Virus record (IMG/VR): IMGVR_UViG_3300028832_000097
Coordinates: 1 to 64,000 of that record
Reading direction: 5' to 3' (one strand)
Source: a virus
Taxonomy: Duplodnaviria; Caudoviricetes
DNA length: 64,000 nt
The translations under genes were made by a program, and so were the position numbers. The notes below the pieces were generated by a model. It searched no databases. It had not been told where the DNA came from and was given only the letters and a program-made list of their open reading frames with translations. Positions 9,435-61,550 of the stretch are shown here, piece after piece. The stretch's first letter is position 1. Every line of letters starts with the position of its first letter.

Positions 9435-10220
9435 TTACTGGAGTTTATATACATCTGCTGGATAATCACCATATGCAATTGCATTGAACCAATCATCAGT
9501 GCTATATGAACGAGTTCTGCCTGTTTGCTCATTCTTAATAATGATGAAATCACCATCACAAGCAAAATTATGTGCAGCACTTAAAGCTTCAGAAAAATCA
9601 TCTCCGGTGTAAGAATCTACAAGACCTTGGAAATTAGAATCGTAGTAGCCTTCTACAGAGTATTTATAATCCAATTCAGCAAGCTGATCGAAACCGCTAC
9701 CGGATGTAGAACAGTCAATAGGTAAATATTCATTAGTGTTTCTATCATATATGTGAGTACAGTTGTGATTACAACCCCAATCAAATGCTTCATCATATGA
9801 ATCAAACCCTGTATCGTAGTAGAAATCCTCAGTGCCGTCGTCTTCAATCCGACCTGCACTATATCTATGATCATAATTTGAATTGACTATGTCACAAGAA
9901 CTTGTTACTCGATTGCAATACTGCTCCGCATACTTTACAGCATCACTTAATCTGTAGAATTTTTTATTGGAACCTACAGACATAATAGGGCCTACATTTC
10001 CGTTCTTCATGCGGAATGCAATACTCAATTCATAATAGCGTTTATCGTCATCATCATATTGCATATCAAGCCAGATATAACCTTCATCATTAGGTAAGGT
10101 CTTGCTAAGTGTTGTCCAGTTACCATCGTCATCATTACCTTCAGGAATGATTGACCAACCTGCGGGCACTTTAGGATAGTTACTAGATGCTGTTATTGGG
10201 TGCTTTGTAAACTTCTTCAT
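9435..10220 (-). CDS. leader-family multi-domain protein (MKKFTKHPITAS)
   Basis: Leader plus internal VTS-S, VNS-N and IDC-S motifs between apparent domains. Confidence 0.7.
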   Translation of the reverse strand: MKKFTKHPITASSNYPKVPAGWSIIPEGNDDDGNWTTLSKTLPNDEGYIWLDMQYDDDDKRYYELSIAFRMKNGNVGPIMSVGSNKKFYRLSDAVKYAEQYCNRVTSSCDIVNSNYDHRYSAGRIEDDGTEDFYYDTGFDSYDEAFDWGCNHNCTHIYDRNTNEYLPIDCSTSGSGFDQLAELDYKYSVEGYYDSNFQGLVDSYTGDDFSEALSAAHNFACDGDFIIIKNEQTGRTRSYSTDDWFNAIAYGDYPADVYKLQ

Positions 10221-10230
10221 ACTTGTTACC

Positions 10231-10602
10231 TCAGTCTTCTAAAGAATAGAAATCAGGATTGCCAATTACTTCAAATCCTGCAAGTCTCATTTTATCTCGT
10301 ATCTGCTGTTCTATCACACTGGAGTTATATTCATTAACCCAAGTGAAATCTACACCAGCCTGGTAGATATCAAATTCTCGATATTCAGGTGAATCTGAAT
10401 AATCTACTTCGTCTAGGCTGAATCCTAAGACTTCACATCCATTGTCCTCGAAAACAGAAGTAAATATTTTTTCAATTGTATCCCATGCACTTCCTTGATA
10501 AAAGTAAGTTACAAAGAAATCAAGCCTAAAACCGGATGTGTGCTTGGTCTCAGTAGCTGATTTTACATAGCTACTAGGGTTTTTAGTAAATGTTCTTTTC
10601 AT
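10231..10602 (-). CDS. leader-family protein (MKRTFTKNPSSYVKSA)
   Basis: Long-form leader; GGAG RBS. Confidence 0.7.
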   Translation of the reverse strand: MKRTFTKNPSSYVKSATETKHTSGFRLDFFVTYFYQGSAWDTIEKIFTSVFEDNGCEVLGFSLDEVDYSDSPEYREFDIYQAGVDFTWVNEYNSSVIEQQIRDKMRLAGFEVIGNPDFYSLED

Positions 10603-10612
10603 AATACTCTCC

Positions 10613-10942
10613 TTAATCTACATGTGCAATTTCAGACAACCAGTCGTTGATAGAATATTCAGGACTCTTGCCTTTATGCACTTTTGCAGTAGTACCGTAG
10701 TTCATGTAATCATCTGTGTAAGTGTTCCTGACAGTATCATCCTTGAAAAAGATGAAATAGTAATACTCATCATAATCATCAGTATCATAGTTGTAACTAT
10801 CAGGATCATATACTAGGTATATTGATGTAACATTTTTACGAATGTTTGAATCATGAATCAAAGGCCGAAGTTCTCGAGTACATGATTTTACTAGCTTGTA
10901 TCCGTTGAATCGGTCTTCAGCTGATTTGATGTATCTTTTCAT
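10613..10942 (-). CDS. leader-family protein (MKRYIKSA)
   Basis: Start moved to the leader Met. Confidence 0.7.
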   Translation of the reverse strand: MKRYIKSAEDRFNGYKLVKSCTRELRPLIHDSNIRKNVTSIYLVYDPDSYNYDTDDYDEYYYFIFFKDDTVRNTYTDDYMNYGTTAKVHKGKSPEYSINDWLSEIAHVD

Positions 10943-10944
10943 AA

Positions 10945-11190
10945 TTAGAGCCCGCATTCATCTGTGTAATCAGATAGCAATTCTCCAAGTTCTTGCTTGA
11001 GTTCCTGGAACTGATTGAAGTCAGCAAGTTTCTTCCTATCTTTACCGTTATCATGCGAGATGTAAAGTTCAGCACCTGTGTAATCACCATCTTTGAAGTT
11101 AGATACAATATCCAATTCAAGTTCAATGGTAGATTTAAGATCCTCAGCGGCTTTTATAGCGGTTTTAGGCCGTTTTGTAAACTGTTTCAT
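10945..11190 (-). CDS. leader-family protein (MKQFTKRPKTAIKAA)
   Basis: Start moved to the leader Met (GGAG RBS). Confidence 0.7.
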   Translation of the reverse strand: MKQFTKRPKTAIKAAEDLKSTIELELDIVSNFKDGDYTGAELYISHDNGKDRKKLADFNQFQELKQELGELLSDYTDECGL

Positions 11191-11217
11191 ATCAAATTTC
11201 TCCAATCTTTAAAGTTT

Positions 11218-11427
11218 TCAATAAGTTGCAACAATAACTAGTACGTCATCGTCTGCATATACACTGCTTAGCCATAGGCCTAATTCGCCTGCAATTTCAG
11301 CAATTTCAGGATAATCTTCAATTTCAGAAATATATCCTTCGAAGAAGATGTTCTTATCCTGCTTACATACTATTCGAATAATTGTAGTAGCTGCTACGTA
11401 TAAATCCAGAAATTCCTGTAATCTCAT
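11218..11427 (-). CDS. hypothetical protein
   Basis: 69-aa ORF with AGGAG RBS; no leader. Confidence 0.6.
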   Translation of the reverse strand: MRLQEFLDLYVAATTIIRIVCKQDKNIFFEGYISEIEDYPEIAEIAGELGLWLSSVYADDDVLVIVATY

Positions 11428-11440
11428 ACAATTGTTCTCC

Positions 11441-11737: not shown

Positions 11738-11762
11738 GATTGCATCACAACCCTTCAGTTAA

Positions 11763-11960
11763 TTAATCTTCTGCAAATGTTAATAGCAGAACTCTTGCAG
11801 AATCTAACAGTTCTACATCCTCATTAGATAATGCGTCAAACCTCGGATCATGAAAATCACCTAATGTCTGGAATCTCCAGAGAGCATCCGCTGCAGCCTG
11901 TGCTGCATCTCTTTGACGTTGAGTTTTACCACTCATGCTTGCGTTAACATATCTTTTCAT
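11763..11960 (-). CDS. leader-family protein (MKRYVNAS)
   Basis: Leader; GGAGG RBS. Confidence 0.7.
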   Translation of the reverse strand: MKRYVNASMSGKTQRQRDAAQAAADALWRFQTLGDFHDPRFDALSNEDVELLDSARVLLLTFAED

Positions 11961-11962: not shown

Positions 11963-12487
11963 TTATTCCTCCTCTGGATATAATTCAACACTTAGCAATA
12001 CATATCCGATTGCTTGCATAACATCTTTAACGATTTCTGGATCTACACCATTGTCAATTAATATACCTTCGCATTCATGTATGTTATCGTCAGTTAATAC
12101 TACACCGTCTAATACTTCCCCAGCTACTTTCATTATAGATTCGTTGGCGGGGTGCAATTCAGCAAGGTCTTCAGGAACAATAGCTTCAGATCCTTTCACA
12201 GAACATGAATAAATATCAAACGGAAATTCTACATCTTCGGCATCATTTTCTAGCCTGTCAACATCTTCCGGGGAAGCATATTGAATAAATGAACCTTCAT
12301 ACGGTAGCCCCGTTTTCCTATAACTGTATTTATCATCAACGATATTCTGTGCTTCTCTAGCAGAATGTGCCCAGATTAATTCCTCATGCCAACTGTAATG
12401 TGTGCCAGAATCGGCGTCACCATAGTCAAATCCTACTCGAGCAACAAATGGAATTAAGTCTTCAGAACTTCTAATGTACTTTCTCAT
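11963..12487 (-). CDS. leader-family two-domain protein (MRKYIRSS)
   Basis: Leader plus an internal IYS-C/VKG-S motif. Confidence 0.7.
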   Translation of the reverse strand: MRKYIRSSEDLIPFVARVGFDYGDADSGTHYSWHEELIWAHSAREAQNIVDDKYSYRKTGLPYEGSFIQYASPEDVDRLENDAEDVEFPFDIYSCSVKGSEAIVPEDLAELHPANESIMKVAGEVLDGVVLTDDNIHECEGILIDNGVDPEIVKDVMQAIGYVLLSVELYPEEE

Positions 12488-13375: not shown

Positions 13376-15208
13376 TTAAGTTACTATGTACTCCCATCTC
13401 ACAACTCCTGAATCATAAACACGAACAAATCCATGATTCTCCATGATTTCTTTCTCGGTTTGATGCTCAATATCAATTGTATCATCTTTAAGTAGTGATT
13501 TTAAAAATTGCTTTTGGCAGCTAACTCTATGATAGTATTTGGTATCATCTTCACGTGCCCAAACGTAACTAGGCTCGGTTAGATGCTTTGATACGAATCC
13601 TAATTTTGTGTATAGATTACCCTTTGTGTGTGCAAAATCAGAAAACGAAATGATTTTAGATGCAGTATAATTGCGCAAGAAATACTTAAATAATTTATCT
13701 GCACCACCTGCAATGTTACATTCAAGTTTTGTACAGAATCTAGAAAGTTCCCATGTATCTGTATCATCTTTAGAATTAGTACCCATTGTCTTACGAATGT
13801 GCCCGAAAGTCATAACAGCTACAAGTTCATCTGTTGAATTTAACCTCAATCCAAATCGTACTTTAGAATTAGTGTAACCTTGGCGATGATTCGCATCTAA
13901 AAATTCTTTGCATTCTAGATAAGATATTTCTTCTACATGTGTATTTCTTGCACCATATTTTGTAGTGTTTGCATGCAGTAGATTAGATAGCATTGATTTG
14001 ATAATTTCAGGTTTAGCTAACCATTCATATCCAAATATGTGGAACAAGAAAACATCATGCTCTTTACAAATATTAGATTTGTTTTGGTGATACTTATAAT
14101 GTTTAGGAGTTTCATGCTTAAATCCGCCTTTAGATGCATTGTGAGTGAATGCAGGATTGCATTCAATTCCTAGATTAAATTCAGGTAGATAAAAATCTAA
14201 TTCATAAGGGGCAATAATACTTCGATTATTTCGAAGAATTGTAGCATTCGGCACAATTGTTTTAAGGAATTCATATACATCTGTCTCTATCCAACTATAA
14301 GATTTAGCAATCAGATTGCTACAATTATGCTCCACAAGTATATCGTATATTGGGGTATCTGTTACACCTAAGGCAGTTCGAAGTTCTTGTATATTGGGTG
14401 CATGATCAAAATTCCTCAATATGTAATTTACCGGATCAGATTTGAAACTCATGTATTCCGATACTTTTGAAGGATCTAATATCTTTTTAGCATATGTATT
14501 TTCAGAAAGTGGTCTCCCATTAGGATAGTGTGCCTTATATGTTGCTAGCCTCTTAGCTTTTATATCAGGGTGCATAGGGGGAGATGTAAACCCATATACA
14601 TTTAAATTAGAAGCAGCTCGACCTTTAAGATATCTATCACTATTCATTATTTGCTTGAGCTTTTTTCGAATTTCAGGAGCTTGAGATACATTTTTAACCT
14701 TGTAAGTCATCATACATTTGTTTTCACGCCTAGTCCTTACTTCTTCTGAGCTATTCCGCTCACTGATCTTAGCTCTAACCCAATCTAGTTCGCTGACATT
14801 ATCTACACCATAAGTGTCCTTAACAGTACGATGGTGTAACTCTTCAGCACATACTTTTGAACATGTTTGCGGCTTCTCATTAGGGGAGCAAGTATATTCA
14901 AATTCATTACCGCATATTGCACATGTAGATTTATGAGGGCCTTCGCAGTAAATTTGACCAGGACTAGTACGCTTAAATAATTTACCGCATTCAGGGCATT
15001 CTTGTTCCACAAATCGAGAAATCATTGTTTCCTTTCGCAACGCCTTTGTGCATTCCGGAGAACAACATTTATGCGGTTCACTAGGTTTTCCATATGCTAC
15101 AGGTTTGCCGCATCGAGGACAAGGTCGATAGTGCGGTCCATTACAGTACACACCGTTGCCTACACGGTCAAATTCTTTCCCACAAATCTTACACTTGAAT
15201 TTTGACAT
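13376..15208 (-). CDS. zinc-finger-repeat endonuclease with a C-terminal GNAT/Mom-like domain (Hef-like homing endonuclease architecture)
   Basis: Repeated CxxCGK.F...YC.GPH; YGVDNVS repeats; ELDFYLPE...IECN PD-(D/E)xK-like core; FLDANHRQG, ELSRFC, GGADKLF, ISFSD...GNLY..LGF and VYDSG motifs. Confidence 0.7.
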   Translation of the reverse strand: MSKFKCKICGKEFDRVGNGVYCNGPHYRPCPRCGKPVAYGKPSEPHKCCSPECTKALRKETMISRFVEQECPECGKLFKRTSPGQIYCEGPHKSTCAICGNEFEYTCSPNEKPQTCSKVCAEELHHRTVKDTYGVDNVSELDWVRAKISERNSSEEVRTRRENKCMMTYKVKNVSQAPEIRKKLKQIMNSDRYLKGRAASNLNVYGFTSPPMHPDIKAKRLATYKAHYPNGRPLSENTYAKKILDPSKVSEYMSFKSDPVNYILRNFDHAPNIQELRTALGVTDTPIYDILVEHNCSNLIAKSYSWIETDVYEFLKTIVPNATILRNNRSIIAPYELDFYLPEFNLGIECNPAFTHNASKGGFKHETPKHYKYHQNKSNICKEHDVFLFHIFGYEWLAKPEIIKSMLSNLLHANTTKYGARNTHVEEISYLECKEFLDANHRQGYTNSKVRFGLRLNSTDELVAVMTFGHIRKTMGTNSKDDTDTWELSRFCTKLECNIAGGADKLFKYFLRNYTASKIISFSDFAHTKGNLYTKLGFVSKHLTEPSYVWAREDDTKYYHRVSCQKQFLKSLLKDDTIDIEHQTEKEIMENHGFVRVYDSGVVRWEYIVT

Positions 15209-15293: not shown

Positions 15294-17096
15294 TTAGGTA
15301 TTTATTACAACTACATATTCATTATTGCTATTTAAGTGTGAAGAATTTTTCAAAACTTCTACAACATTATCTTTATACAGTTGAGTATCATCTACTACAA
15401 ACACGTATCGTTTACAAGTTATTCTATCTAACACTACTTGTATCCATTCGTCACAAGATTTAATAGTCATATTATCAAAATATATCTCCTTATCCGCATA
15501 AGGAGGGCAAGTTAATACACAATCAAATGCAATATTATCATATGACAACACATCCTTGCAAGACACTTCACCTTGTAGCGCAAGTTCACGTATTATGTTA
15601 TTTGCTTCTGTTACAACTATAGAATTAATATCAGACCCAATATATTGCTTCCCTGCAGCACATACGCCTAAGAGCCTTCCGGAAAATCCCGAAAATGGGT
15701 CAAAAATCGAATCAAATTCAGATAAATACTTAACCGTAAGATACTTAGCTAATACAGGGTTGAATACTGAAACTTTTGGAGCGATTTTAGAAACATTGAA
15801 ACCTTGCAAAACTTTACTAGGATCCACATTATTCTGATAGATTATTCTGTTTGCGATGCATTGTTTGAGTAATGTATCGTCATTCCATGCATCGTAAGGA
15901 GATACTTTATTCTGGATGTGGCACATGTATATAGAAGTATGATACTGTTGTATAGATGATACTCCAAGTTTGCAATACGGATTATAATGTTCACAGTCAT
16001 ATTTACAAAGTTTTGCATAATCGGAATGTATGCGTTTAGTTGAATATGTAAATTTTGGAAATCCATTGGCCCGGCACCAGAAAAACAGATCAGTATCATA
16101 AGAAAATATATTGTTATCCATTTGTAGTAGTAGTTTTTGTAAATTACGCAAACCTCGTTCAAAGTCTGATTCTATGATGGCTACGAAAATATGATCGGCA
16201 GGTATAAGTGCTAGCCGAGTATCATCATAGTCATCTCGGACTTTTCGGCCATCAGGATCTTCCAAATAAGAATGCCAATAAATACCATCACAATCAATTA
16301 GTATCTTATACTTGGGTAAGTAGACATCAAATTCATGCACAATATTGTTAGATTTTAACACATGATGAACTTGATATTCAATATTATATTGGTCCAGCAT
16401 ATTGATGAGCCGAATCTCAAGAGAGCTCATATTAGCGGAATTCCTTGATTGTTTAGAACGCAATGCGCATGACTGCATTGCAAATGGCACACCATACCGC
16501 TGCAGGTTAGTTTCAGCAGTAGCTTGCCTGCACTCTGAACTATTTATTCTCTTTTGTATTTTCACCCTAACTTCTGGAATTTGGGCAACGTTAGTATACT
16601 GTGTTCCGTATTTTTCCTGAATGGTTTGAATTTTATATGATTCAGAAGCTACTGCTGAATCGTGTAACTTTGACCTCACTGTATCTGATTGTGACACCAC
16701 GCTCACATTGTACTTATCTAAACATGTTTGCTCTCGTAGCTTATTTGTACATTCTGTAGAACATCCTGGAGTAGGCTGATATGGATACTTAATTAAAACA
16801 GGTTTACCGCAAATAGGGCAAGGCTTGTAATGCGGTCCGTTGCAATATAGCGTAGTATTACTGATAGGATGAAATTCTTTCCCGCACAAGAGACATATAC
16901 GTGTTTCGTTTGAGATAGATTGTTTCCGCAATGCAGCTTTACAGGCTTTTGAACATGTTTTAGGAAAATTAGTCATTGTCGATATTGTATATTCTTTACC
17001 GCATATTATACATTTAGCAACATGAGGTCCTTTACAATATACTTGTGTACCTTTTGCGTCAAATTCATTACCACAGTATTTACATATTCTTATCAT
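15294..17096 (-). CDS. zinc-finger-repeat Vsr/DUF559-like endonuclease fused to a DNA amino-methyltransferase
   Basis: Start moved to MIRICK (AGGAGG RBS). Same zinc-finger repeats; EFDVYLP...IDCDGIYWH nuclease; MTase motif I DPFSGFSGR and motif IV TCPPY. Confidence 0.7.
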   Translation of the reverse strand: MIRICKYCGNEFDAKGTQVYCKGPHVAKCIICGKEYTISTMTNFPKTCSKACKAALRKQSISNETRICLLCGKEFHPISNTTLYCNGPHYKPCPICGKPVLIKYPYQPTPGCSTECTNKLREQTCLDKYNVSVVSQSDTVRSKLHDSAVASESYKIQTIQEKYGTQYTNVAQIPEVRVKIQKRINSSECRQATAETNLQRYGVPFAMQSCALRSKQSRNSANMSSLEIRLINMLDQYNIEYQVHHVLKSNNIVHEFDVYLPKYKILIDCDGIYWHSYLEDPDGRKVRDDYDDTRLALIPADHIFVAIIESDFERGLRNLQKLLLQMDNNIFSYDTDLFFWCRANGFPKFTYSTKRIHSDYAKLCKYDCEHYNPYCKLGVSSIQQYHTSIYMCHIQNKVSPYDAWNDDTLLKQCIANRIIYQNNVDPSKVLQGFNVSKIAPKVSVFNPVLAKYLTVKYLSEFDSIFDPFSGFSGRLLGVCAAGKQYIGSDINSIVVTEANNIIRELALQGEVSCKDVLSYDNIAFDCVLTCPPYADKEIYFDNMTIKSCDEWIQVVLDRITCKRYVFVVDDTQLYKDNVVEVLKNSSHLNSNNEYVVVINT

Positions 17097-17167
17097 GGTA
17101 TTGCCTCCTATAAGGATATTGTGTAGATAAAAGGTTACACCAAACATGTTACCTCGAATAACGATTC

Positions 17168-21223: not shown

Positions 21224-21712
21224 TTACTTCTCTATCGATTTCAGAACTTTACCTGTATCGTAATTTCTGAGTTCAACAAATTCGTCAAATTCGTCACTAT
21301 CTATAACTAATGCGTAGTAATCTTCGGCTTCATCTAAGTTATCAAACACCTTCTTATCTCCATCAAACCATACCAAGTAACGAGGTTTTCTGTGGATATC
21401 CGAAGACTCTTCAGAAGGTAAAACATCGGAAAATTTGTAGATTTCAAAATCAGGGTCTGAATTTTTCTCAGATTCTATTTCAGCATCCGTTGCAGGTGTA
21501 GCGTATGACCCAATGTAACTACGGTCATCTCGATAAGTTTCATTAGCCCACCACTCAGCTTCATTAGTGTCATTTGCTTCAACAAACGCGATAGCTTCCG
21601 ATACACATGGGCCAGATTCACAATCGCCTTCTTCAAAACCTGAAGATACTTTGAAAATTTGAGAAGCCTTTATAGGTTTTTGAGTTGTAGGATATTTTCT
21701 AAATTGTTTCAT
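21224..21712 (-). CDS. leader-family acidic protein (MKQFRKYPTTQKPIKAS)
   Basis: Long-form leader; AGGAGG RBS. Confidence 0.7.
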   Translation of the reverse strand: MKQFRKYPTTQKPIKASQIFKVSSGFEEGDCESGPCVSEAIAFVEANDTNEAEWWANETYRDDRSYIGSYATPATDAEIESEKNSDPDFEIYKFSDVLPSEESSDIHRKPRYLVWFDGDKKVFDNLDEAEDYYALVIDSDEFDEFVELRNYDTGKVLKSIEK

Positions 21713-22302
21713 CTCTTAAGCCTCCTATGTTGTTGGATAACACGTTCTCTGACATATTTTGGTAATGTACCCATAATATCATCAAATAATGTATCTGTAG
21801 TTTCAAGATTATCTGCTACGCGTAATCGTACAAGCATAGTATGATCTTGAGCAAGCTGTTCTATTACATCTCTAGGTGTGTTAATATTGCCAGCTACTTC
21901 GCCACGTACACTTTCGTCAGGATGCTCAGCTAACTTACGCAAAGTATCTTCTGAAGTATTAGCATTACCTGCTACTAACGCAAGTACCGTAATATTTTTG
22001 GATTTCTTAGCTAATCGTGATAAAGCATCCGGAGGAGTTTTATTAGATCTTGCTACTACAGCACGAACCCCATCATCTGTATCATTTGCAAGCATAGTAA
22101 ATACTGCATCAGGCGTACTAGGATTATTTGCAACAAGTATTCTAACAGATGATAAAGGATCTGCAGCGAGTCGCTTAAGAAGACGTGGATCTTCAGAATC
22201 CACTGCTAAGGATTTTCGCATACCTACATCTTGATTCTCTAGAGATTCTACAGCAGCTTTTACAGATGCATTTTGTTTAGGTAACTTAGTAAATTTATAC
22301 AT
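21709..22302 (-). CDS. leader-family HEAT/LRV-repeat protein
   Basis: MYKFTKLPK...VKAA leader; about 24-aa LAxDxxxxVRxxVAxNxxTP repeats. Confidence 0.75.
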   Translation of the reverse strand: MYKFTKLPKQNASVKAAVESLENQDVGMRKSLAVDSEDPRLLKRLAADPLSSVRILVANNPSTPDAVFTMLANDTDDGVRAVVARSNKTPPDALSRLAKKSKNITVLALVAGNANTSEDTLRKLAEHPDESVRGEVAGNINTPRDVIEQLAQDHTMLVRLRVADNLETTDTLFDDIMGTLPKYVRERVIQQHRRLKR

Positions 22303-43222: not shown

Positions 43223-43669
43223 TTAATTATTTTCTTCTATCAATTCCTTTATTTTCTTTCTAGTATTCCGCTTAGAATATAATTTCATTGAGTAGCAGTG
43301 TAGCAAGCTAATAATTTCTTCAAAGATTTCCTCACTGTCTAGCTTTGGAGATCCTACTTCGCTCATAACTTCTATTTCACAGTTGTATTTCTTAAAAAGG
43401 TGATAGAATAGATCAAATCCTACTCTAGATAATCTATCTTTGTAGGAAATAACAACTCGTTCAACTCTCCCTTCGATAACATCGTCAAGCATTTCAAAGA
43501 ATTGTGTTCGTTTCTCAAAACTTATTCCGCTTGCAATGTCTGAATAGATAGCTGATATGGAATATCCTTGATTAAAGCACCATTGCCTCAACATCTCTAT
43601 TTGATTTTCGAGATCTTTCTTTTGAGTAGATGCAGAAACTCTAGCATAAATATAAGTCTTGCGCTTCAC
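43223..43669 (-). CDS. tnpA: IS607 serine recombinase TnpA lacking its N-terminal HTH
   Basis: YARVS..Q..DL.NQ, DIASG and DRLSR.GF. The in-frame upstream remnant DVYKIAYGNV runs into a stop inside the previous gene. Confidence 0.85.
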   Translation of the reverse strand: MKRKTYIYARVSASTQKKDLENQIEMLRQWCFNQGYSISAIYSDIASGISFEKRTQFFEMLDDVIEGRVERVVISYKDRLSRVGFDLFYHLFKKYNCEIEVMSEVGSPKLDSEEIFEEIISLLHCYSMKLYSKRNTRKKIKELIEENN

Positions 43670-44969: not shown

Positions 44970-45875
44970 TCACCAATCATATTCAGTTTCAAGTATCTTA
45001 CGCATACTTGTAATTTCACGACGAATACTACGAAGTTGTTTGAATGCTTCTCGTGTAGCATAAGAATTAAGTCCCATATCTTCTCCATATTTTTCTATAC
45101 TCTGCTTGACAGATTCGAGGCTATGAAGAGCAATCCTATAATCACGAACTGAATTTCCAAAACGATGCATTAGATTTTCATATGCGGTGCTAGAATAATC
45201 AAGATTACCTTCACGGTCCTTACCAAACGTGAATGAATCTACGTTGAATAGATCATCTTTCAGAGCTGCAAGGTCATCATGAACTTCTTGAGCTGTTTCA
45301 GCAAGTTTGTCTAACCCCTCCTTAGAGCTATAGAATTTTAACAGTCTTTCATCAGGATTAGGGATTATGTAGCCTGACTTATCACGTTTATCACTACCAT
45401 ATCTACCGCGAGAAGTTGTTCTACCTTGTGCGGACCAACCGCCTGCATCCCAACTAGACGCGTCTTTGTAGTATTGACCAGCATACTTGCCATATTGATC
45501 ATATCTAGGATCTTGATAGCGCTCCTTACTAGGCTTGGCGTTATCTGCGATATTTACATAGACAATGTCTGCAATAGGCAGATTTTTCTTTGCAATATAC
45601 TTTACTGCCTTATATCCACCATCATAAGGATCTGTGAAATACTCGTTGTCGTTGTATAGTCCTGGAATCCAAACTGTAGGCCATGTGCGAGATGCACCCT
45701 GTTTCTGCAATAAGTAGACTGTATACTGCTCGCCACTTTTTCCTGTTTTTGATGTGCTGAATGTAGCATTCTTCAAATCAATTCCAGCCCTAGCAAGTGC
45801 TCTGAGCGCATTCTTATCATTTTGCAGCCAACTAGGTATCCAGTTATCAAATGATGCTCTAATGTACCTTTTCAT
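44970..45875 (-). CDS. leader-family protein (MKRYIRAS)
   Basis: 301 aa; AAGGAG RBS; AACCTT motif upstream. Confidence 0.75.
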   Translation of the reverse strand: MKRYIRASFDNWIPSWLQNDKNALRALARAGIDLKNATFSTSKTGKSGEQYTVYLLQKQGASRTWPTVWIPGLYNDNEYFTDPYDGGYKAVKYIAKKNLPIADIVYVNIADNAKPSKERYQDPRYDQYGKYAGQYYKDASSWDAGGWSAQGRTTSRGRYGSDKRDKSGYIIPNPDERLLKFYSSKEGLDKLAETAQEVHDDLAALKDDLFNVDSFTFGKDREGNLDYSSTAYENLMHRFGNSVRDYRIALHSLESVKQSIEKYGEDMGLNSYATREAFKQLRSIRREITSMRKILETEYDW

Positions 45876-46733: not shown

Positions 46734-48527
46734 TTAATTCTCCTTAGAAATATTTACTACGTTTACAGAATCTATGTAATCAGGTAATGCAACCACACCT
46801 GCAATGATCAGTTGAACATCCGATACGTTGCTAAGTCGTTCAAACAAACTACACAGATTAGTAGGATCTAGATGATCAAACAAATCATCTACCACAAGCA
46901 ATTTAAGATTAGAAGAGGACTGCTTGACTAATGCAACTAATAAAGCTAGAGTATATATACATTTTTCTCCGCTAGACAATAGATCAAAAGTTATGTATTT
47001 GTTGTTTCGCACAAGCCCAAAACTAAATGTGTTTGTCTTACCCTGTGAATTGAACTGTATCTTTGCATCAGAAAATACTTGGGGTAAGTAGTCTGTAATA
47101 GATTTTGAAAATTCTACAAATGGATCGTCTCCGGAAGTTGCTTGCAACCCATTGATGCCGGTAAGTGCATCCCACTTTTTCAAAATATCAACACTCTGAT
47201 CTATCATTGATTTTTCTTGAGTAAGTGTATCGATCATTGTTTGATACTTCTGGTTAGCTTCTAGCTTGATTAATGAATCATGTAACTGATCTAATTTGCT
47301 GTTTATATCTTCCATAGTACAAAGATCATTCGGTATCTCTGGAAGCGGAAGTATAGCTGCATTTAATACTGCTATCTTATGATTTGTTAGCTCTGAATCC
47401 TGAAGCTGTTGTTTTTTAACAGATAATTTAGTTTTTATAGATGAAAGCTCTTCTTGAAGTTTAAGTACTTGTGTTTTATATTCAGACAGCTTTGCAGTAT
47501 CTTGTATAACTTGATTTCGATAAGATGCGACTAACACAGATATTTCATTGCAATGACTTGCAGTATAAGGGCATACACCTCCACCGTTTATAACTTTTGT
47601 TTTCATAGAAATTTCAGACTCTAGCCCAGCAATACTTGGATTGAGTTTAAGTATCTTAGCGGATACTGCGTCAAAATCAATCTGTAAAGTTTCAATGTTG
47701 CTTCGTAACTCATCTATATCAACATCATTATGTAAATTGTTTATTTGCATTCTAACTGTATCATTCTTAGAACGCACTGTATTGTAGTCAATTAGCAACT
47801 GCTTCTGAGCTTCATACTTACTGATTTCAGATTTGATAGCATCAACTGACATAGTAGATGAAAAATCATCGTAGTATACTAAAGATTGCATGGTGTTTTG
47901 CAATCTTTGTGCAGACTGCTTCTTAAATGATAACATAGATTTGATATATTCATTGGCCTTCCTCAATTCTTCAATTCCAGATAGACCGAATGATTTTATT
48001 TCAGAAACAGTAGTAGGCAGTAATTCTGTATCCAGTATATTAGCTACACCGCTATTATTAGACAGAACAGTCTCCCAATCAGTTTCAAAAGATGTGCTAG
48101 GTAAGAAGTTTAAGAACCAATCTTTCAAACTATTAGAAGTCATGTTTATGAAATCACTGAAATTAAATACAGGTAATTCAATATCTGATATTATATCGTC
48201 AATTGTGTAGTTATCTGGGTCTATCGTGAACGTATTAACATATTTGACACCACATCGAGATAATGACCTAAACAATCGAATTTCACCACTATCTGACTCA
48301 ATATGCAATTCAACATTCATAGAATTCTTACTAGAATGTCTAAACAATGCTTCGTAACTATTTTTCTTTGTGCCGGGTACATATCCAAATAGCCCGTACT
48401 CTATAGCATTTAATATAGTTGATTTACCAGCACCATTAGGCCCTGTGATGTAATTTATGTTGTCGAATTCATATGTTTTGCTATCAACATTGTGAAATCC
48501 AGAAATGGTTATTGATTTAAGTTTCAT
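46734..48527 (-). CDS. SMC/Rad50 (SbcC-like) ATPase
   Basis: Walker A GPNGAGKST, coiled coil with a central CPYT..C hook, signature LSSGE, Walker B/D-loop VVDDLFDHLD. Confidence 0.88.
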   Translation of the reverse strand: MKLKSITISGFHNVDSKTYEFDNINYITGPNGAGKSTILNAIEYGLFGYVPGTKKNSYEALFRHSSKNSMNVELHIESDSGEIRLFRSLSRCGVKYVNTFTIDPDNYTIDDIISDIELPVFNFSDFINMTSNSLKDWFLNFLPSTSFETDWETVLSNNSGVANILDTELLPTTVSEIKSFGLSGIEELRKANEYIKSMLSFKKQSAQRLQNTMQSLVYYDDFSSTMSVDAIKSEISKYEAQKQLLIDYNTVRSKNDTVRMQINNLHNDVDIDELRSNIETLQIDFDAVSAKILKLNPSIAGLESEISMKTKVINGGGVCPYTASHCNEISVLVASYRNQVIQDTAKLSEYKTQVLKLQEELSSIKTKLSVKKQQLQDSELTNHKIAVLNAAILPLPEIPNDLCTMEDINSKLDQLHDSLIKLEANQKYQTMIDTLTQEKSMIDQSVDILKKWDALTGINGLQATSGDDPFVEFSKSITDYLPQVFSDAKIQFNSQGKTNTFSFGLVRNNKYITFDLLSSGEKCIYTLALLVALVKQSSSNLKLLVVDDLFDHLDPTNLCSLFERLSNVSDVQLIIAGVVALPDYIDSVNVVNISKEN

Positions 48528-48569
48528 ATTTACCGCGCCTTTCAATATTATATGTTGAAGTATAACGAT

Positions 48570-48971
48570 TCAACGTACTCTTGTCCATCTCCTTCGTTTT
48601 CCTGAAACAGATAACTGATATTCGTATATCCCAGGCACTAAGAGTCCACTGTGAATAGTAACATTACCTAGTACGTCATAACTATCTAATATTTCTGGAA
48701 AATGATACTTCAATACATGCTCCAATACAGAGGTTTTATTAACATCATGTTTAAGATGTACATTAGGATATACATATATACTTGGATCAAATATTATGTA
48801 TTTGTTGAAGTCCTTTCCTGCAATATCTAAAATATCAAGTTGTCGGGATCTGTCATCGTCAACTCCTATTATACATCGATACGTTACCTTGCGGCAATCG
48901 GCACGACTTGATAAATGCGAAGATAATGCACGCAGAAATTGTTCAGTTAATACAGTCCTATTCATTTCCAT
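48570..48971 (-). CDS. hypothetical protein
   Basis: 133-aa ORF overlapping the end of the helicase gene. Confidence 0.55.
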   Translation of the reverse strand: MEMNRTVLTEQFLRALSSHLSSRADCRKVTYRCIIGVDDDRSRQLDILDIAGKDFNKYIIFDPSIYVYPNVHLKHDVNKTSVLEHVLKYHFPEILDSYDVLGNVTIHSGLLVPGIYEYQLSVSGKRRRWTRVR

Positions 48972-50526
48972 TGCCTTTCAATACACATAGATTATTTTTT
49001 GCTCGAGTGATCCCTACATAATATAAATTGAAATTATCTTCGTTGTCCAATCGAAATGTAGAAGTATGCACTCTATTTAATATAACATTATCATATTCTA
49101 ATCCCTTTGCAGAATGTATAGTACCTACATACAGACCTGCATTAGAATCTTTATATTTAAGTATGATTATGCTTAACGCATATATCACATCATCCTTACA
49201 AGTTATGTCACTACTAACTTCCCATAGAATATCCTTGTCTATGTTGTAAAATTCGGCTAATTGCATCAAATGTATTGCATAACTTGATGTATCTCCTAGT
49301 TGCAGCTTAAGTTGCAATATTTCATCAAAGTACTTATGAACAGATTCATTGTTAAATGATTCAACTAACTGTGTACTTGATAGTTCAGGATTCAAAGAAC
49401 GCTGTCGTATAAACTCTACAAATTCATCTTGTGATAAAAACTTAGAAAGGAATGTAACTGCATACATATCATCCAAACAAGATTCATACACATCTACACT
49501 ATAACATAGCTGTAAGTATTTTTCGTAGTTCATGAAATATTGTGCATACCGAGTACGTATATTATCAACTTCTTTGTTAGTTCTGCACAATACTGCAGTA
49601 ACCCCACCTAATGATAAATAGTCGGAAATATGTTTATCCAATGTGTCAATGGTATCTACGATTACATCGGAACCTTCTCGCTCAGAACGTATTTCTATTC
49701 TATATTGGTTATCTGCATAATGACTCATAGAATTTGCAAACCTACATATTTGTTTTGTTGATCTATAGTTTTGCATGAGGCGTAATGTGGCCCAATTTGG
49801 GTCTGCAGCTAGTTCTTTTATTAATCTAGACGTAGTTCCTCGGAAGGAATAAAGATTCTGTAACGCATCCCCTACTACAAATATACTCGCATCGGGAAAT
49901 GAAGTTACAAATCTCCACTGCACTTCATCACTATCTTGGAATTCATCTACCATTATAACTTTATACGTATATTTATACTGCTGTACTAATGGAGAATCCT
50001 CTACAAATAACTTACAAACATCGTTACATATCTTATCAAATGTTATAGCATTGTTTTTCTGGAGCAATCTATCTAAAAATTTCTGGAATACTGTGTATTC
50101 AAATTTATGATTAGGTGTAGTTAGATTCTCACCATGTAATTGTTTTGCAGATAATTTAACACCACTGTCTAACTTAGCAGTACTGACCAAAAGCTTGTAT
50201 TCAGCATCACTTATTATATGAGGTATGAAATCATAACCTAAACATCTGCGTAACTCTGCATCTTTAACAATCAACGAATAGCAGAATGCATGGAATGTTT
50301 TGAATTCCGGAGAATTTGCACCCTCAAATCTATCTCGCATATTCTGTGCAGCAGCATTTGTGAATGTAAGTACTAGAATAGATTGTGGAGATACGCCGTC
50401 TGCTATTAGTCGGTTTATTCTATGTAACATGGAAAATGTCTTACCAGTACCTGCACCGGCAAGACATACAATATATGGATGATTACATTCAACGACTACT
50501 TCCTGCTCGTAATTTAACTGGCTCAT
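48958..50526 (-). CDS. UvrD/PcrA-like SF1 helicase
   Basis: AGAGTGKT, LTFTNAAA, TFHAF, VDEFQD, GDALQNLYSFRG, QNYRS, TIHSAKGLEY and YVGITRA motifs. Confidence 0.93.
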   Translation of the reverse strand: MSQLNYEQEVVVECNHPYIVCLAGAGTGKTFSMLHRINRLIADGVSPQSILVLTFTNAAAQNMRDRFEGANSPEFKTFHAFCYSLIVKDAELRRCLGYDFIPHIISDAEYKLLVSTAKLDSGVKLSAKQLHGENLTTPNHKFEYTVFQKFLDRLLQKNNAITFDKICNDVCKLFVEDSPLVQQYKYTYKVIMVDEFQDSDEVQWRFVTSFPDASIFVVGDALQNLYSFRGTTSRLIKELAADPNWATLRLMQNYRSTKQICRFANSMSHYADNQYRIEIRSEREGSDVIVDTIDTLDKHISDYLSLGGVTAVLCRTNKEVDNIRTRYAQYFMNYEKYLQLCYSVDVYESCLDDMYAVTFLSKFLSQDEFVEFIRQRSLNPELSSTQLVESFNNESVHKYFDEILQLKLQLGDTSSYAIHLMQLAEFYNIDKDILWEVSSDITCKDDVIYALSIIILKYKDSNAGLYVGTIHSAKGLEYDNVILNRVHTSTFRLDNEDNFNLYYVGITRAKNNLCVLKGNGNE

Positions 50527-51388: not shown

Positions 51389-52393
51389 TTATTCAGAAAA
51401 TTGATTCCAATCATGGTTATATTCGTATTTATTCACAAGCTTATTTGTGAAAGTTTCTGTATATCTTAAAGAAAGATCAGACGGTCTGCGTATCTTACGC
51501 ATGTCGATTTTTGTAGATATTGCATAATCATACTCATCGTCAGTAAATTCTAGTGTTATAGTTTTGTAGTCATCTTCTAAGAATGCATCTTGAAACGACA
51601 GATCATTTGAGTTGCTCCAACCATTTCGATACAACCAGCTGTTTGCGTTCTCAGCAACTTCTTCACCTAACTCTACTAATTCTTCCTTTGTCCAAAATGC
51701 ATAAGGATCTATATCAAATGCACCACCATAATTTGGTAAAGTTTCACAAGTTACTTTAGCAGAAGCTTCGATAAGATCAGAAGGTACATATGCAGTTATT
51801 ATACCAGGCTCATCTACATCAAAATAAGCATCTTGAGAAATTTCTGCAACAATAGGATCAAGTTCAGCAGCTAGCTCTACTATATCCGCATATCCTAATT
51901 CCGCACGTACCTGAACAGCAAGATATCTGCCGTCTGTAGTAGGGCTAACATCTACTGTATAGTAATCCACTACGTCTTCACTAGCGAATCCTTGAGATAT
52001 CATAAAGTTCTTTGTAAGTTTTGTTAATTTATCTACAAGTGTAGAATATTTCATATCAGGCCCTCCCAGTATTGCAGAATTAGCAAGATCTTCAGATGCA
52101 AATGCAGGTTCGTCTTCTAACTCTGCAGTAGATGTAGGCTTACCAGAGCCTATTGGATCATTATCAAATTCATGCTCTTCAATGTCAAGAAGTGTAACAA
52201 TACCATTTGATTTATCGGCAGTGAATTCGGCACCGCAGTTTGTGCATTCTAAATAGTCCCCATACTCAATGTCATTGTAGCTCTTTGCATTAGTATCTGT
52301 ATCATACACCGCTTTTATATGACACTTTGGGCACATGAGCGCGATATCTGCAACATCTGATGACCCATCCGCATACTTAATCTTTTTGATCAT
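51389..52393 (-). CDS. acidic multi-domain protein with an N-terminal zinc ribbon
   Basis: CPKC...CTNCG; internal ILG-G, IEA-S and VTC-E motifs. Confidence 0.65.
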   Translation of the reverse strand: MIKKIKYADGSSDVADIALMCPKCHIKAVYDTDTNAKSYNDIEYGDYLECTNCGAEFTADKSNGIVTLLDIEEHEFDNDPIGSGKPTSTAELEDEPAFASEDLANSAILGGPDMKYSTLVDKLTKLTKNFMISQGFASEDVVDYYTVDVSPTTDGRYLAVQVRAELGYADIVELAAELDPIVAEISQDAYFDVDEPGIITAYVPSDLIEASAKVTCETLPNYGGAFDIDPYAFWTKEELVELGEEVAENANSWLYRNGWSNSNDLSFQDAFLEDDYKTITLEFTDDEYDYAISTKIDMRKIRRPSDLSLRYTETFTNKLVNKYEYNHDWNQFSE

Positions 52394-58242: not shown

Positions 58243-58575
58243 TTACCACCGTGGATAATTTTCCTTGAAATCCTCAAACGTATACACCTTAGGTAAGTAA
58301 TTATCGTATCCAGGAGCTACAGGTGCAATTGTCTCATCATCGAACTTAACTAAATACATGTAGTCTTCACTAGAATAATTATCACGAGGAATCAATGCGC
58401 AGATTATTGTACTATTAGGGAAATGACGATAGATCCTATCTTCAAAATAATCGGACTCATAATCGTCTCCGCCGTAATCATTATAGAACTTATCTAAATC
58501 CATACATGTAAAGTATTTGTTCCACCAACCGCGTCTAGATGTTGCAAGTATAGGTGTTTTTCTAAATTGCCTCAT
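58243..58575 (-). CDS. leader-family protein (MRQFRKTPILATS)
   Basis: Long-form leader. Confidence 0.7.
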   Translation of the reverse strand: MRQFRKTPILATSRRGWWNKYFTCMDLDKFYNDYGGDDYESDYFEDRIYRHFPNSTIICALIPRDNYSSEDYMYLVKFDDETIAPVAPGYDNYLPKVYTFEDFKENYPRW

Positions 58576-59075
58576 AGTACAATCTCCCCGGTTTCTACAT
58601 TCTTTATTTCAAAATCTTGGTCAGTGAATTCGTATAATCCGCATTCATGGCATCTCTGAACTTCAAGATCTAGCCTATCAACGCACTCCTGCAATGTGCC
58701 ATATTCGTTACCATACTCACCATATCCTTGTCCGGATATAGGAAGTCCTGTAGCTTTATCAATGACAACAAATACGCGTTGATAAGCTTCAGGAGTTACG
58801 CCACATTCAACACACTCAGATTCACTGCCCCAAATATCTTCTTCTTTTTGAATCCATTCAGGATAGATATCATACTGTTTAAGTTCTTTAGAAGTAAGAA
58901 ATCTATCTAAGTATATAGCAGTAAACCAATGAGGTAGATCCTCCGACTTTAGAAGTGTTACATCTTTAGGAAGTGTTCCAGGGCCTGTGCCGTGTTTTGT
59001 TAAGTAACGATAACCTTCGCCAGGATACTCTCTAGAAGCTTTTACATACTTAGGAGATACTGTAAATTTACGCAT
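58572..59075 (-). CDS. leader-family protein with a DarA C-terminal-like domain
   Basis: MRKFTVSPKYVKAS leader; YRY...G.GPGTLPK...Y.DR.LT..E...YDI.P resembles the DarA_C pattern. Confidence 0.6.
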   Translation of the reverse strand: MRKFTVSPKYVKASREYPGEGYRYLTKHGTGPGTLPKDVTLLKSEDLPHWFTAIYLDRFLTSKELKQYDIYPEWIQKEEDIWGSESECVECGVTPEAYQRVFVVIDKATGLPISGQGYGEYGNEYGTLQECVDRLDLEVQRCHECGLYEFTDQDFEIKNVETGEIVL

Positions 59076-59084
59076 TATGTAACC

Positions 59085-59444: not shown

Positions 59445-59461
59445 ATAATCATCGCCTCCAA

Positions 59462-59680
59462 TTATTTCTTGAGCTCAAGCAGCACAACGCTCATATTTGC
59501 AATCGCACCCTGTACTGCCTGCTTTTCTTCAGGTGTTTTACAGCTTGACATTATAGTCCCGAGCTGATCAATAGCAGATTTAACAACCTTCTGAGATTGC
59601 TCAGAAGCTGTAATAACATCCGGCTGCCTAACTAATTTCTTGCCTGCAGTTACTTTACGTTTTGTTCTATTTATCTGCAT
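59462..59680 (-). CDS. small protein with a variant leader (KVTAG...VITAS)
   Basis: AGGAGG RBS. Confidence 0.6.
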   Translation of the reverse strand: MQINRTKRKVTAGKKLVRQPDVITASEQSQKVVKSAIDQLGTIMSSCKTPEEKQAVQGAIANMSVVLLELKK

Positions 59681-59701
59681 TGTAATATGACCTCCTACAA
59701 T

Positions 59702-60037
59702 CTATTGATTATCTTTAATTACTATATGCCACAACCCATCTACCATAGGACTATATCCTACTGCAAGTTCAATGCCATCAGGAGTATGTAGTATCCAGAT
59801 AGGAAACACCCTACCATGACGTTGAGATATATCATAGACAGCATTAGTAGCTTTAGCAACAGAGGATACAAACTGCTGTGTATCTTCGTCAGTTGCGTCA
59901 TCTGGGATCAAAAAATCAAACCATGTTTCGTCTTCGCCGTAATCTACTAATTCATAATCAGTAGTATCCAACATACCAAAAATTTGATCTTGAATTTTTT
60001 CAAGGCCTGAAACAGACGATTTAATGTATCTCTTCAT
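59702..60037 (-). CDS. leader-family protein (MKRYIKSS)
   Basis: Leader; GGAG RBS. Confidence 0.7.
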   Translation of the reverse strand: MKRYIKSSVSGLEKIQDQIFGMLDTTDYELVDYGEDETWFDFLIPDDATDEDTQQFVSSVAKATNAVYDISQRHGRVFPIWILHTPDGIELAVGYSPMVDGLWHIVIKDNQ

Positions 60038-60060
60038 GTTGTCTCCGTACCGCTAGAATC

Positions 60061-60558
60061 TTACCAAATATCAAGTTCACCAAGAGCTGCTTCTATGATA
60101 TAATCAGTATCTTTATCAATATCTTTAATAAGATCGGACTTAGGTATCTGAAATTCGTGAATAGTTCCTTTACTACTATAAACGATCAAATAAATATTGT
60201 CGATGCTTTCATGGTAAGTAGAGGTAGCATCATAACTCTCTAATGCCGCGTCTACCTCTTCCATAAGATCTTCATAATAATTTAAAGTGTCAGCTTCATC
60301 AGATTCTCCTGTTATGATATCTAGCGAAGGACTAATACTAACTGTGTTAGTTGCAGAAAAGATGTCAGCTGAAAATTCGTCAGTTAATAGTTCATACAAC
60401 CTGTCATCGTCGCAGATAACTTCTAAAAGTTCGTCAGCATCTACGTCTAGAAGGTCATTCACACCGAATGCATCACGAAGTTTATCACCATAGACCGGCT
60501 GATTCTCATCTATCCAATCAATGATTTCTGAAATATCAACTGAATGCTTGTTGCTCAT
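60061..60558 (-). CDS. acidic two-domain protein, paralog of 60912-61550
   Basis: IIDWI.E and HEFQIPKSDL...DTDYI match IVGWL.E and EEFNVPLSDL...DLDYV. Confidence 0.65.
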   Translation of the reverse strand: MSNKHSVDISEIIDWIDENQPVYGDKLRDAFGVNDLLDVDADELLEVICDDDRLYELLTDEFSADIFSATNTVSISPSLDIITGESDEADTLNYYEDLMEEVDAALESYDATSTYHESIDNIYLIVYSSKGTIHEFQIPKSDLIKDIDKDTDYIIEAALGELDIW

Positions 60559-60779
60559 TCCTCGCCTCCGATAATGTCCGCAATCTGTGCAATTATATCT
60601 GTTAACTGTGCATGTAGCTCATTTGCTACTTCAATACCAGAACTACGTGAAGGTCCGCCGTCTCGGTCAAGCTTCTCTAATCCACTTACTGCGTAGTCAA
60701 AATCATCTTCAATCACGTCAATCATATCTTTGAGACGTGTGTCTTCAGATGCTTCAGCACTCATAATTACTCGTTTCAT
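60555..60779 (-). CDS. leader-family protein (MKRVIMSA)
   Basis: Leader; AACCTT motif upstream. Confidence 0.65.
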   Translation of the reverse strand: MKRVIMSAEASEDTRLKDMIDVIEDDFDYAVSGLEKLDRDGGPSRSSGIEVANELHAQLTDIIAQIADIIGGEE

Positions 60780-60911
60780 ATTGACACCTCATAATTAACA
60801 GTATTTGTATATTAGTATTTAAGGTTCAATCACAACAATAGCCGAAGTGTGCCTACTCCGACTACTATTGTGTACGCAATATGTATCACCATGACAAATG
60901 GAGATCAAATA

Positions 60912-61550
60912 TTATAGAAATGCTGCCTCAATCTCAGAAACTACATAATCTAGATCGTCATCCAAGGTATCAACATCGCAAGATAAATCAGACAACGGTA
61001 CATTGAATTCTTCAACAGTTCCATCTGCCATCGTAACAGAAATTTCAAAACTCTGTTTGTTGAATGAACATTCAACTGAATCGCAGTCAACGTCAGAACC
61101 TATTATAGCATCATTTATCTCCCAGCAGAATTTTTCTACAAATTCAGGAGATGCTGCAGACGATGCTGTAATTGTTGAGCTATTAGTACAACACATTAGT
61201 TCATGCTCTTCAGCTAGTTCAGGGAATCTGTTGCAGAAATCTCTGCATAAAGTATCGTGATCAGATATCCAACCAATTACTTTATCTAATGTGATGTCTT
61301 CTTCAGGAACATCTTGGAAGTAGAAGTTGAAATCATCATAAGCAGTTTCATGTTCCTGTAGCCAACCTACAATGTTATCAATATCTGTTAGCTCGTCATC
61401 TATGAAACCTAAAACAGGTTCTTGATTAGTATCACAGCTGTTGCGCTCGCTTATCTTGAGCTTTTCAGCAGAATCAATCAACCCGGAAGATAATTCATCA
61501 ATTCTACTTTCAAATGCATCAATCATGTCAGTTAAGTTTCCTTTAGGCAT
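60912..61550 (-). CDS. acidic multi-domain protein
   Basis: AAGGAGG RBS; internal IDS-A and ITA-S motifs. Confidence 0.65.
   Translation of the reverse strand: MPKGNLTDMIDAFESRIDELSSGLIDSAEKLKISERNSCDTNQEPVLGFIDDELTDIDNIVGWLQEHETAYDDFNFYFQDVPEEDITLDKVIGWISDHDTLCRDFCNRFPELAEEHELMCCTNSSTITASSAASPEFVEKFCWEINDAIIGSDVDCDSVECSFNKQSFEISVTMADGTVEEFNVPLSDLSCDVDTLDDDLDYVVSEIEAAFL

Follow-up and report, generated by a model that had tools for sequence, protein, structure and literature searches.

Leader-tagged cargo modules of an uncultured T4-like phage occur as separate genes and as fused chains whose joints resemble the leader end

The window analysed here is a stretch of 64,000 nucleotides, i.e. 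the first 64 kb of the 170,977-bp virus record IMGVR_UViG_3300028832_000097, which belongs to an uncultured T4-like phage with 37% G+C, and nearly all of its genes are located on the minus strand. An initial annotation had flagged seven open reading frames (ORFs) of this window in which the motif that ends a short N-terminal leader recurs internally, and had proposed that these ORFs encode polyproteins, i.e. that several small effectors are packaged through one leader and are then released by the head protease. Sequence comparison indicates that the flagged ORFs draw on a common stock of small cargo modules that can be shuffled and are present either as separate leader-tagged genes or as fused chains, and supports the view that the motif of the leader end is retained at the fusion joints or has arisen there by convergence. 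Two to three modules are found in the ORFs of the window and six in one protein of a relative (P0018), most of them without a known family. All motifs quoted in the initial annotation are present in the sequence where it had placed them. It is, however, their position relative to independently defined boundaries, and not their frequency, that lifts the observation above chance, and in five of these seven ORFs the polyprotein proposal is backed by independent domain boundaries and by homologues. We see an even chance that one or more joints of the window are cleaved by the head protease.

The leader and the canonical joint

Among cultured phages none is close to the phage studied here (best identity of the terminase ≤36%, of the capsid protein ≤27%). 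In IMG/VR, 52 related contigs can be found, with capsids that are 53-73% identical, and several of these contigs are complete genomes of 160-250 kb. A pattern search identifies 43 genes of this genome that begin with one of two leader types, a short one (MK[RK][YV]I-x-[AST]) and a long one (MK-x-FT-x-x-P...[IV]-x-[ASC]). All matches in this genome are located at N-termini, each of the tagged genes has its own ribosome-binding site, and in four whole relatives the short leader is present on 5-24 genes. The leaders end in [IV]-x-[A/S/C], in which Cys is exchangeable for Ala or Ser, followed by Ser, Ala, Asn or Thr, and none of the leaders has a Glu at P1. As the leader codons vary synonymously, conservation is at the protein level and selection acts on the leader peptide. 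A nucleotide-level role of the leader, i.e. as a signal for recombination or translation, was discarded in view of this synonymous variation and the differing upstream regions.

The simple patterns miss variants in 8049-9020, 59462-59680, 62031-62909 and 62913-63164 (minus strand), i.e. MKIYIKS, a longer basic N-terminus ending in VITA↓S (the arrow denotes the predicted cut), MKITA↓T, and one ending in PIKA↓S, and the real total of tagged genes is thus higher than 43. One leader-tagged gene encodes an ART-PolyVal protein of 143 residues (PF18760; G000 153586-154017, corresponding to L005:9586-10017, minus strand) with an ADP-ribosyltransferase domain (E 1.8e-14). This protein is likely to be an injected host-modifying enzyme, and its gene ties the leader-tagged set to the repertoire of polyvalent-protein domains that are delivered with the capsid (PMC5512222).

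An exhaustive HMMER search with 9435-10220 (minus strand), a leader-tagged protein of 261 residues, yielded 99 homologues, which show three separable modules (A, ~9-105; B, ~117-170; C, ~183-260). The initial annotation had suggested looking for the individual domains as stand-alone leader genes in related phages, and such genes were found for all three modules: A (P0044, P0057) and B (P0027) stand alone behind an MKRYI- or MK-x-FT-type leader, and leader-tagged copies of C are provided by P0034, P0035, P0043, P0053, P0083 and P0094. Each module is also found internally in larger proteins, which are mostly leader-tagged. The ten internal copies of module A that were examined are all located directly behind [IV]-x-[AS]-[SA], nine of them behind an element that we term the canonical joint and one behind the leader-like RRYINS. 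The canonical joint has the form DDVEAC-DK-VTAS, or, in relatives, [DE][DE]-[IV]-[ED]-[AS]-C-[DG]-x-[IV]-[TK]-[AS]-[ST], and is present in 68 copies in 36 of the 99 proteins, as compared to 0.015 copies in shuffled sequences, with up to five joints per protein and a median spacing of 106 residues. The long leader of 9435-10220 itself, MKKFTKHPITA (10188-10220, minus strand; predicted cut before the next Ser), aligns with the VTAS end of the joint before module A in nine larger homologues, PITA↓S falling on VTA↓S, and the second half of the canonical joint is positionally homologous to the leader end.

Even when the canonical joints are removed, the strict motif, [IV]-x-[AS]-[AS], in contrast to the loose motif of the initial annotation, [IV]-x-[ASCG], is twice as frequent as expected in the 99 homologues (132 versus 66, z 8.4), with two control motifs being flat, and most of the remaining sites are variant joints. 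Moreover, whole short leaders, with the Met retained or replaced by Ala, are found inside proteins in five cases (0.5 expected), four of which are at module starts. A fusion is also seen in the relative G003, where a protein of 163 residues consists of an extra module and a homologue of a 91-residue leader-tagged gene product of this genome, the junction SKNILAA aligning with MKRVITA. The canonical architecture is best exemplified by P0018 (L096:2137-3735, plus strand), which has 532 residues, six modules and five DDVEAC-type joints and whose contig also carries homologues of the window genes 8049-9020 and 44970-45875. Back-translated joint patterns, which are too narrow for a census, recovered three true loci in IMG/VR, one of them on a contig that belongs to the clade defined by the capsid, and two other matches that are due to chance.

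A Cys follows the first small residue in 68 of 68 canonical joints, which is by construction of the search pattern, and Cys is still the commonest residue there in a looser pattern that allows Ser. A lipobox reading of the joint ([LVI]-x-[GAS]-C) was dropped since the linkers that contain the joints are acidic, no signal peptide is present, and the Cys is replaceable at leader ends. The conserved joint motif was not found in the literature searched. Neither PHROGs nor Pfam assigns the cargo modules to a family or reveals a peptidase domain in the multi-module proteins, and in fold searches neither the PDB nor the viral models yielded a match below E 0.001 to the model predicted for 9435-10220.

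Joints of the flagged proteins

In 9435-10220 modules A, B and C comprise residues ~12-105, ~117-170 and ~183-260. An AlphaFold model calculated with an alignment has a mean predicted local distance difference test score (pLDDT) of 86.5 and a predicted template modelling score (pTM) of 0.47 and shows three domains, connected by linkers with pLDDT <50 at residues 109-116 and 174-181. As anticipated by the initial annotation, the predicted linkers coincide with the joints. The A/B joint (RVTSSCDIVNSN, 9876-9911, minus strand) is a degenerate doubled motif that overlaps with the first linker, IVNS↓N being located inside it, and the B/C joint (PIDCS, 9708-9722, minus strand) is a single degenerate motif, PIDC↓S ending three residues before the second linker; the remaining copies of the motif in this protein precede the first domain or fall within strands. 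At the A/B position a canonical joint is seen in P0005 and P0012, and at the B/C position P0008 (77% identity in module C) shows a full doubled joint. As the closest homologues (77% identical) contain full canonical joints at both junctions, the joints of 9435-10220 are to be regarded as degenerate versions of these.

A protein of 317 residues with two LRV-repeat modules (PF01816, E 1.2e-17) and a long leader (36493-36534) is encoded by 35581-36534 (minus strand). Both modules are 27-36% identical to three stand-alone leader-tagged paralogues (minus strand), i.e. 36536-36970 (PF01816, E 5.1e-16), 21709-22302 (PF01816, E 1e-15) and 35075-35563, which is assigned to the family by alignment alone and has no LRV match in Pfam. 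Residues 157-311 align to residues 12-139 of 36536-36970 and likewise to the other two paralogues. Since the BLAST alignment starts at residue 157, which corresponds to residue 12 of the paralogue, module 2 begins precisely with the [IV]-x-C in which the leaders of the paralogues end, confirming the earlier statement that it starts like the stand-alone paralogues do after their leader. The joint (KLQIDPDYIAESVVTCS, 36055-36105, minus strand) ends in VTC before a Ser and is the fourth-best match in the proteome to a position-specific scoring matrix (PSSM) of the joint, and the 16 residues preceding module 2 look like a decayed long leader. Orthologues of 35581-36534 were found neither in IMG/VR nor in five whole relatives, and a large protein collection returned its own copy and generic LRV proteins, so that its joint is judged by paralogues only. 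An AlphaFold model calculated without an alignment has a pLDDT of 40 and says nothing about the linker. The leader-tagged protein P0011 of a relative, in which an LRV module is followed by a canonical joint, provides a precedent for this architecture in the clade.

The two-module protein 11963-12487 (minus strand) has the short leader MRKYIRS (12467-12487), and in the orthologue alignment (A3) both the N- and the C-terminal domain are conserved and the linker is variable. Its joint, DIYSCSVKGSE (12185-12217, minus strand), is a doubled motif with a Cys. In the orthologues, which are 54-94% identical, S-[IV]-x-[GS]-S-E is kept in five of five cases, although the adjoining linker varies and has insertions and deletions, and one orthologue contains an extra N-terminal module that ends in SIKGS and is followed by a complete leader. 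The leaderless protein 51389-52393 (minus strand) is composed of three modules, a zinc ribbon, X and Y. X and Y are found separately and in reverse order in relatives, and the modules are arranged in another order in one relative and are also present inside a leader-tagged protein of 1171 residues. The joint LIEASAKVTCE (51743-51775, minus strand), a doubled motif with a spacing of six residues, is the third-best match to the joint PSSM in the proteome, and the doubled motif is kept in seven of seven orthologues (alignment A5; 46-59% identity), with I208 and S211 being invariant. A second joint, AILGG (52061-52075, minus strand), which had been missed by the initial annotation, is located directly before module X in an otherwise hypervariable linker, and [IV]-x-[GC] is present there in six of the seven orthologues. 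In 58572-59075 (minus strand; two modules, long leader 59037-59075) module 1 is a YLYIFKHG-type domain with a weak DarA_C match (E 0.02). Modules of this type form the N-terminal domain of many canonical chains, and the degenerate joint DIWGSESECVECGVTPE (58788-58838, minus strand) is found at the position that the canonical joint has behind this domain in more than ten homologues.

The two remaining ORFs belong to one cluster. The start of 60061-60558 (minus strand; leaderless, 165 residues) overlaps (ATGA) with the stop of 60555-60779 (minus strand), a leader-tagged module (MKRVIMSA) of 74 residues that is homologous to the N-terminus of 60912-61550 (minus strand). The latter protein is leaderless, has 212 residues and is a fused paralogue of 60555-60779 plus 60061-60558, located 350 bp away. 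The motifs flagged in 60061-60558 are situated in a Ser/Thr-rich stretch (60304-60366), whereas those of 60912-61550 are TITASS (61158-61175, minus strand), in a Ser-rich linker, and LIDSA (61467-61481, minus strand), inside the N-terminal module. The motifs of both proteins have no independent support, and the sites of 60061-60558 and LIDS↓A are not distinguishable from chance. The proposed location of the motifs at domain junctions is corroborated for 9435-10220 by the AlphaFold linkers, for 9435-10220, 51389-52393 and 58572-59075 by modules delimited by homology, and for 11963-12487 and 51389-52393 by orthologue alignments, but not for 60061-60558 and LIDS↓A.

A leader-like stretch is also present in 36988-38271 (minus strand; 427 residues, short leader). 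Its N-terminal domain of ~100 residues holds an internal sequence resembling the long leader (~residues 76-91, K-x-Y-K-R-Y-P-x-x-D-I), its middle module (residues 103-244) aligns to residues 13-155 of a long-leader protein from the relative G004, and its C-terminus is a BspA-type leucine-rich repeat. In the relatives G004 and L031 the homologue of the middle module begins right behind a genuine long leader, and the internal stretch may show how the long leader originated.

Head protease, capsid propeptide and genomic context

The genome encodes a T4-type head module. A gp20-like portal protein (Portal_T4) is located within the window (29508-31010), and a gp23-like capsid protein (Gp23 family match; G000 77098-78570, corresponding to L001:13098-14570, minus strand) and a head protease of 494 residues (G000 78596-80080, corresponding to L001:14596-16080, minus strand) are encoded outside of it. 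The protease consists of an N-terminal Peptidase_S77 domain (T4 gp21) and a long C-terminal coiled coil and matches PF03420 (Peptidase_S77; 34.3 bits, cut-off 27) and phrog_207 (head maturation protease; E 8e-25), while a phmmer search against solved structures returned no gp21 match. The coiled-coil tail that is fused to the protease comprises ~320 residues and is dense in the cleavage motif, a layout like that of herpesvirus UL26, in which the protease is combined with a scaffold containing release sites.

In T4-type heads the capsid propeptide is removed, and propeptide and scaffold are the canonical substrates of a gp21-type protease. In the phage studied here the strict motif is enriched in residues 1-85 of the capsid protein (4 observed, 0.7 expected) and in the coiled-coil tail of the protease (residues 171-494; 8 observed, 2.3 expected); there is no enrichment in the protease domain, and that in the mature capsid is marginal. 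In 42 of 42 distinct capsids of the clade [IV]-x-[AGS] directly precedes a conserved ATNT stretch where the propeptide ends. In these 42 capsids the propeptides have 60-94 residues and contain 3-6 sites each (mean 4.4), which often form doublets that are exactly six residues apart (e.g. I-T-A-G-x-x-I-T-S-G). The spacing in the cargo joints is identical, and it may reflect a dimeric protease or a cut in two steps. The occurrence of the motif in both capsid propeptide and scaffold is good indirect evidence for a protease that cuts after [IV]-x-small. Thus, the head protease most likely recognizes [IV]-x-small, a predicted specificity resembling that of herpesvirus assemblin, for which the sites YLQA↓T and VQA↓S have been predicted in pseudorabies virus (PMC4498786) and whose fold is shared by prohead proteases (Cheng 2004, as cited in PMC10052503).

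Several other genes of the genome are of note. Ordinary replication and repair genes are located amid the cargo clusters of the window (minus strand), i.e. those for an NAD-dependent DNA ligase, an SMC/AAA_23-type ATPase and a UvrD-type helicase (3923-5812, 46734-48545, 48958-50526). A TnpB-like gene (OrfB_IS605, Cas12f-like TNB domain) is found beside a small serine resolvase (41918-43171 and 43223-43669, minus strand), and two more TnpB-like ORFs are recognizable by eye in the phage genome (G000 88865-90821 and 142727-143992). Three paralogues of ~610-636 residues (13376-15208 and 15294-17147 in the window, minus strand, and G000 74998-76908) have Cys-rich zinc-ribbon-like repeats at their start; 13376-15208, the only one of them that was tested, has no Pfam family.

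Cleavage of the joints, alternatives and known systems

We infer packaging, cleavage, injection and the roles of the modules as follows. The leader would take the precursor into the prohead, as the capsid-targeting sequence does in T4, and the gp21-family (S77) protease would then remove the leader. The same protease would cut exposed joints after [IV]-x-[A/S/C/G], by which the modules would be freed as separate small head proteins, and the freed modules would enter the host along with the DNA. For the clade we furthermore speculate that the canonical joint is a portable cut cassette of ~12 residues, DDVEAC-DK-VTAS, which may be read by an assemblin-like S77 protease (aliphatic-x-Ala, cut before Ser), so that up to six unrelated effector modules could be placed behind one leader and released in the head, with free switching between the split and the fused state. 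This extended proposal is tentative, and we rate it slightly short of an even chance.

Several results weigh against this mechanism. Within this genome the loose motif occurs in the bodies of the leader proteins as often as expected (146 observed, 143.5 expected, in 6012 residues, i.e. one per 41 residues), with 4-12 copies in each of the seven flagged ORFs. The recurrence of the motif, on which the initial annotation had relied, is therefore no evidence by itself, and judged by frequency alone the proposal would be refuted by the annotation's own criterion, i.e. motifs that are not commoner than such a degenerate pattern predicts. A PSSM of the 43 leader ends (six residues) gives 55 internal matches of at least 7 bits versus 43 expected, which is near background, and TITA↓S of 60912-61550 (7.7 bits) is the only one of the originally flagged sites that is among its top 45. 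Doubled motifs are barely enriched (26 versus 17.7 expected), and neither the leader-end PSSM nor the doublet spacing separates signal from noise in this genome. The canonical joint was not found in this genome, a fixed-spacing PSSM of it giving no match of at least 8 bits and a best score of 7.2 bits, as compared to 28.5 bits in the capsid-defined relative G004, and the joints of the window are weaker, degenerate copies of it. One site in 9435-10220 is devoid of Ile/Val at P3, one site is lost entirely, and the second site of the joint in 58572-59075 is probably nonfunctional because it has a Pro at P1; moreover, no cultured phage has the domain of 58572-59075. The motif is not depleted inside the cargo bodies, which implies that the tripeptide alone is insufficient for cutting and that context must matter. 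A leader-driven route cannot explain three of the seven flagged ORFs (51389-52393, 60061-60558, 60912-61550), which have no leader, nor the orthologues of 51389-52393, which start with a zinc ribbon and are all leaderless, and packaging through one leader, as originally proposed, cannot apply to these three ORFs. Finally, the cleavage model does not account for the Cys that is invariant in the canonical joint.

Some of these observations can be accommodated if the joint is conserved yet uncut, serving as a structured or flexible connector, as a retained tag for head targeting or scaffold binding, or as a Cys-dependent element, so that the chains act intact. Such a function would agree with the invariant Cys and the acidic flank, which are needless for a simple [IV]-x-small cut site, and it would fit with the conservation of the joint in leaderless families such as 51389-52393. 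Polyvalent proteins, too, are often delivered unprocessed, e.g. the virion RNA polymerase of phage N4 (PMC5512222), and in SPN3US the cuts of the head protease, apart from its self-cleavage, yield N-terminal propeptides and one mature protein, not several modules (PMC10052503). Against an uncut joint stand, however, the homology of the joint end to the leader end, the repetition of the motif with identical six-residue doublet spacing in the capsid propeptide, and the location of the joints in low-confidence linkers rather than in folded elements. We consider an uncut joint unlikely, albeit a serious alternative.

The internal motifs of this genome might also be decaying fusion scars or chance occurrences, with functional joints being restricted to the relatives. 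This agrees with the motif statistics within the genome, which are all at chance, with the degeneration of the window joints as compared to the closest homologues, with the missing independent support for the sites in 60061-60558 and 60912-61550, and with the prevalence, in this genome, of modules that are split and tagged one by one (43 leader genes). Against it, the joints of 11963-12487 and 51389-52393 are kept among orthologues of 46-94% identity while residues and lengths of the linkers vary, and [IV]-x-C-S is retained in the second module of the LRV protein at a module identity of only 27-36%; we consider this explanation improbable. Cleavage of the joints by something else, i.e. a different peptidase of the phage or the host, or autocatalytic cleavage between Ala and Cys of the canonical joint, might be suggested by the predominance of Cys after the first small residue (also in the looser pattern) and by the joints on leaderless proteins, but is very improbable, as the multi-module proteins contain no recognizable peptidase domain, leaders may end in Ala or Ser in place of Cys, an element of 12 residues that connects unrelated domains can hardly be expected to cleave itself, and the motif is common to capsid propeptide and scaffold region.

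Several known systems resemble the arrangement described here, and each of them differs from it in some respects. In T4 the internal proteins IPI-III and Alt (PMC3012670) are likewise unrelated, fast-evolving small proteins with a short conserved N-terminal tag, the tag ends in a head-protease motif that is also found in the capsid propeptide, and the head genes gp23/gp20/gp21 are homologous. The motif of T4 is [LI]-x-Glu, however, whereas it is [IV]-x-[A/S/C] plus a small residue here, and the present genome has two leader classes on ~43 genes and would generate several products per chain via joints, which are undescribed in T4. Polyvalent proteins (Iyer et al. 2017, PMC5512222) are phage polypeptides that each carry two to fifteen conflict-related domains. 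They resemble the cargo proteins in being chains of small effector-type domains that are predicted to travel in the capsid and are extensively shuffled between genomes, and ART-PolyVal is present here on a stand-alone leader-tagged gene. In contrast to polyvalent proteins, the domains are mostly split into tagged genes here, no embedded peptidase was found, and the fusions use a conserved joint of 10-12 residues that is not described in PMC5512222.

Herpesvirus assemblin (UL26) shares the aliphatic P3, the Ala at P1 and the Ser/Thr at P1', as well as the fusion of the protease to a C-terminal scaffold that bears the sites, but it cuts only itself and the scaffold and has no cargo repertoire, and the likeness in specificity is read from the sequence here. 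In phiKZ and SPN3US (gp175, gp245; PMC10052503) a gp21-family protease acts on many head and ejection proteins via one short motif, with several cuts per propeptide, yet this motif ends in Glu (x-x-Glu). The loading of proteins by means of a tag and a protease (T4) and multi-domain capsid cargo (polyvalent proteins) are known already, whereas the Ala/Ser-type, assemblin-like motif, the long doubled joint containing a Cys, and the clear alternation between split and fused modules are new.

The conserved joint is directly testable by co-expression and does not require phage culture. If joints are cut, a cleavage rule would be defined for a large uncultured clade, mature protein ends would become predictable from sequence, and a compact pair of tag and joint would be available for packaging foreign proteins in capsids. 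If the cassette proposal is true, it would represent a natural, programmable loading of multiple cargos and a second, Ala-type specificity class of phage prohead proteases, and the assemblin-like specificity, if true, would add a functional link between the maturation proteases of phages and herpesviruses. For the phage itself, cutting of the joints would mean that one short tag and one protease allow it to load and release many small proteins, probably for anti-defence or host takeover, and that in evolution modules can pass from separate genes to fused chains and back while their delivery stays intact.

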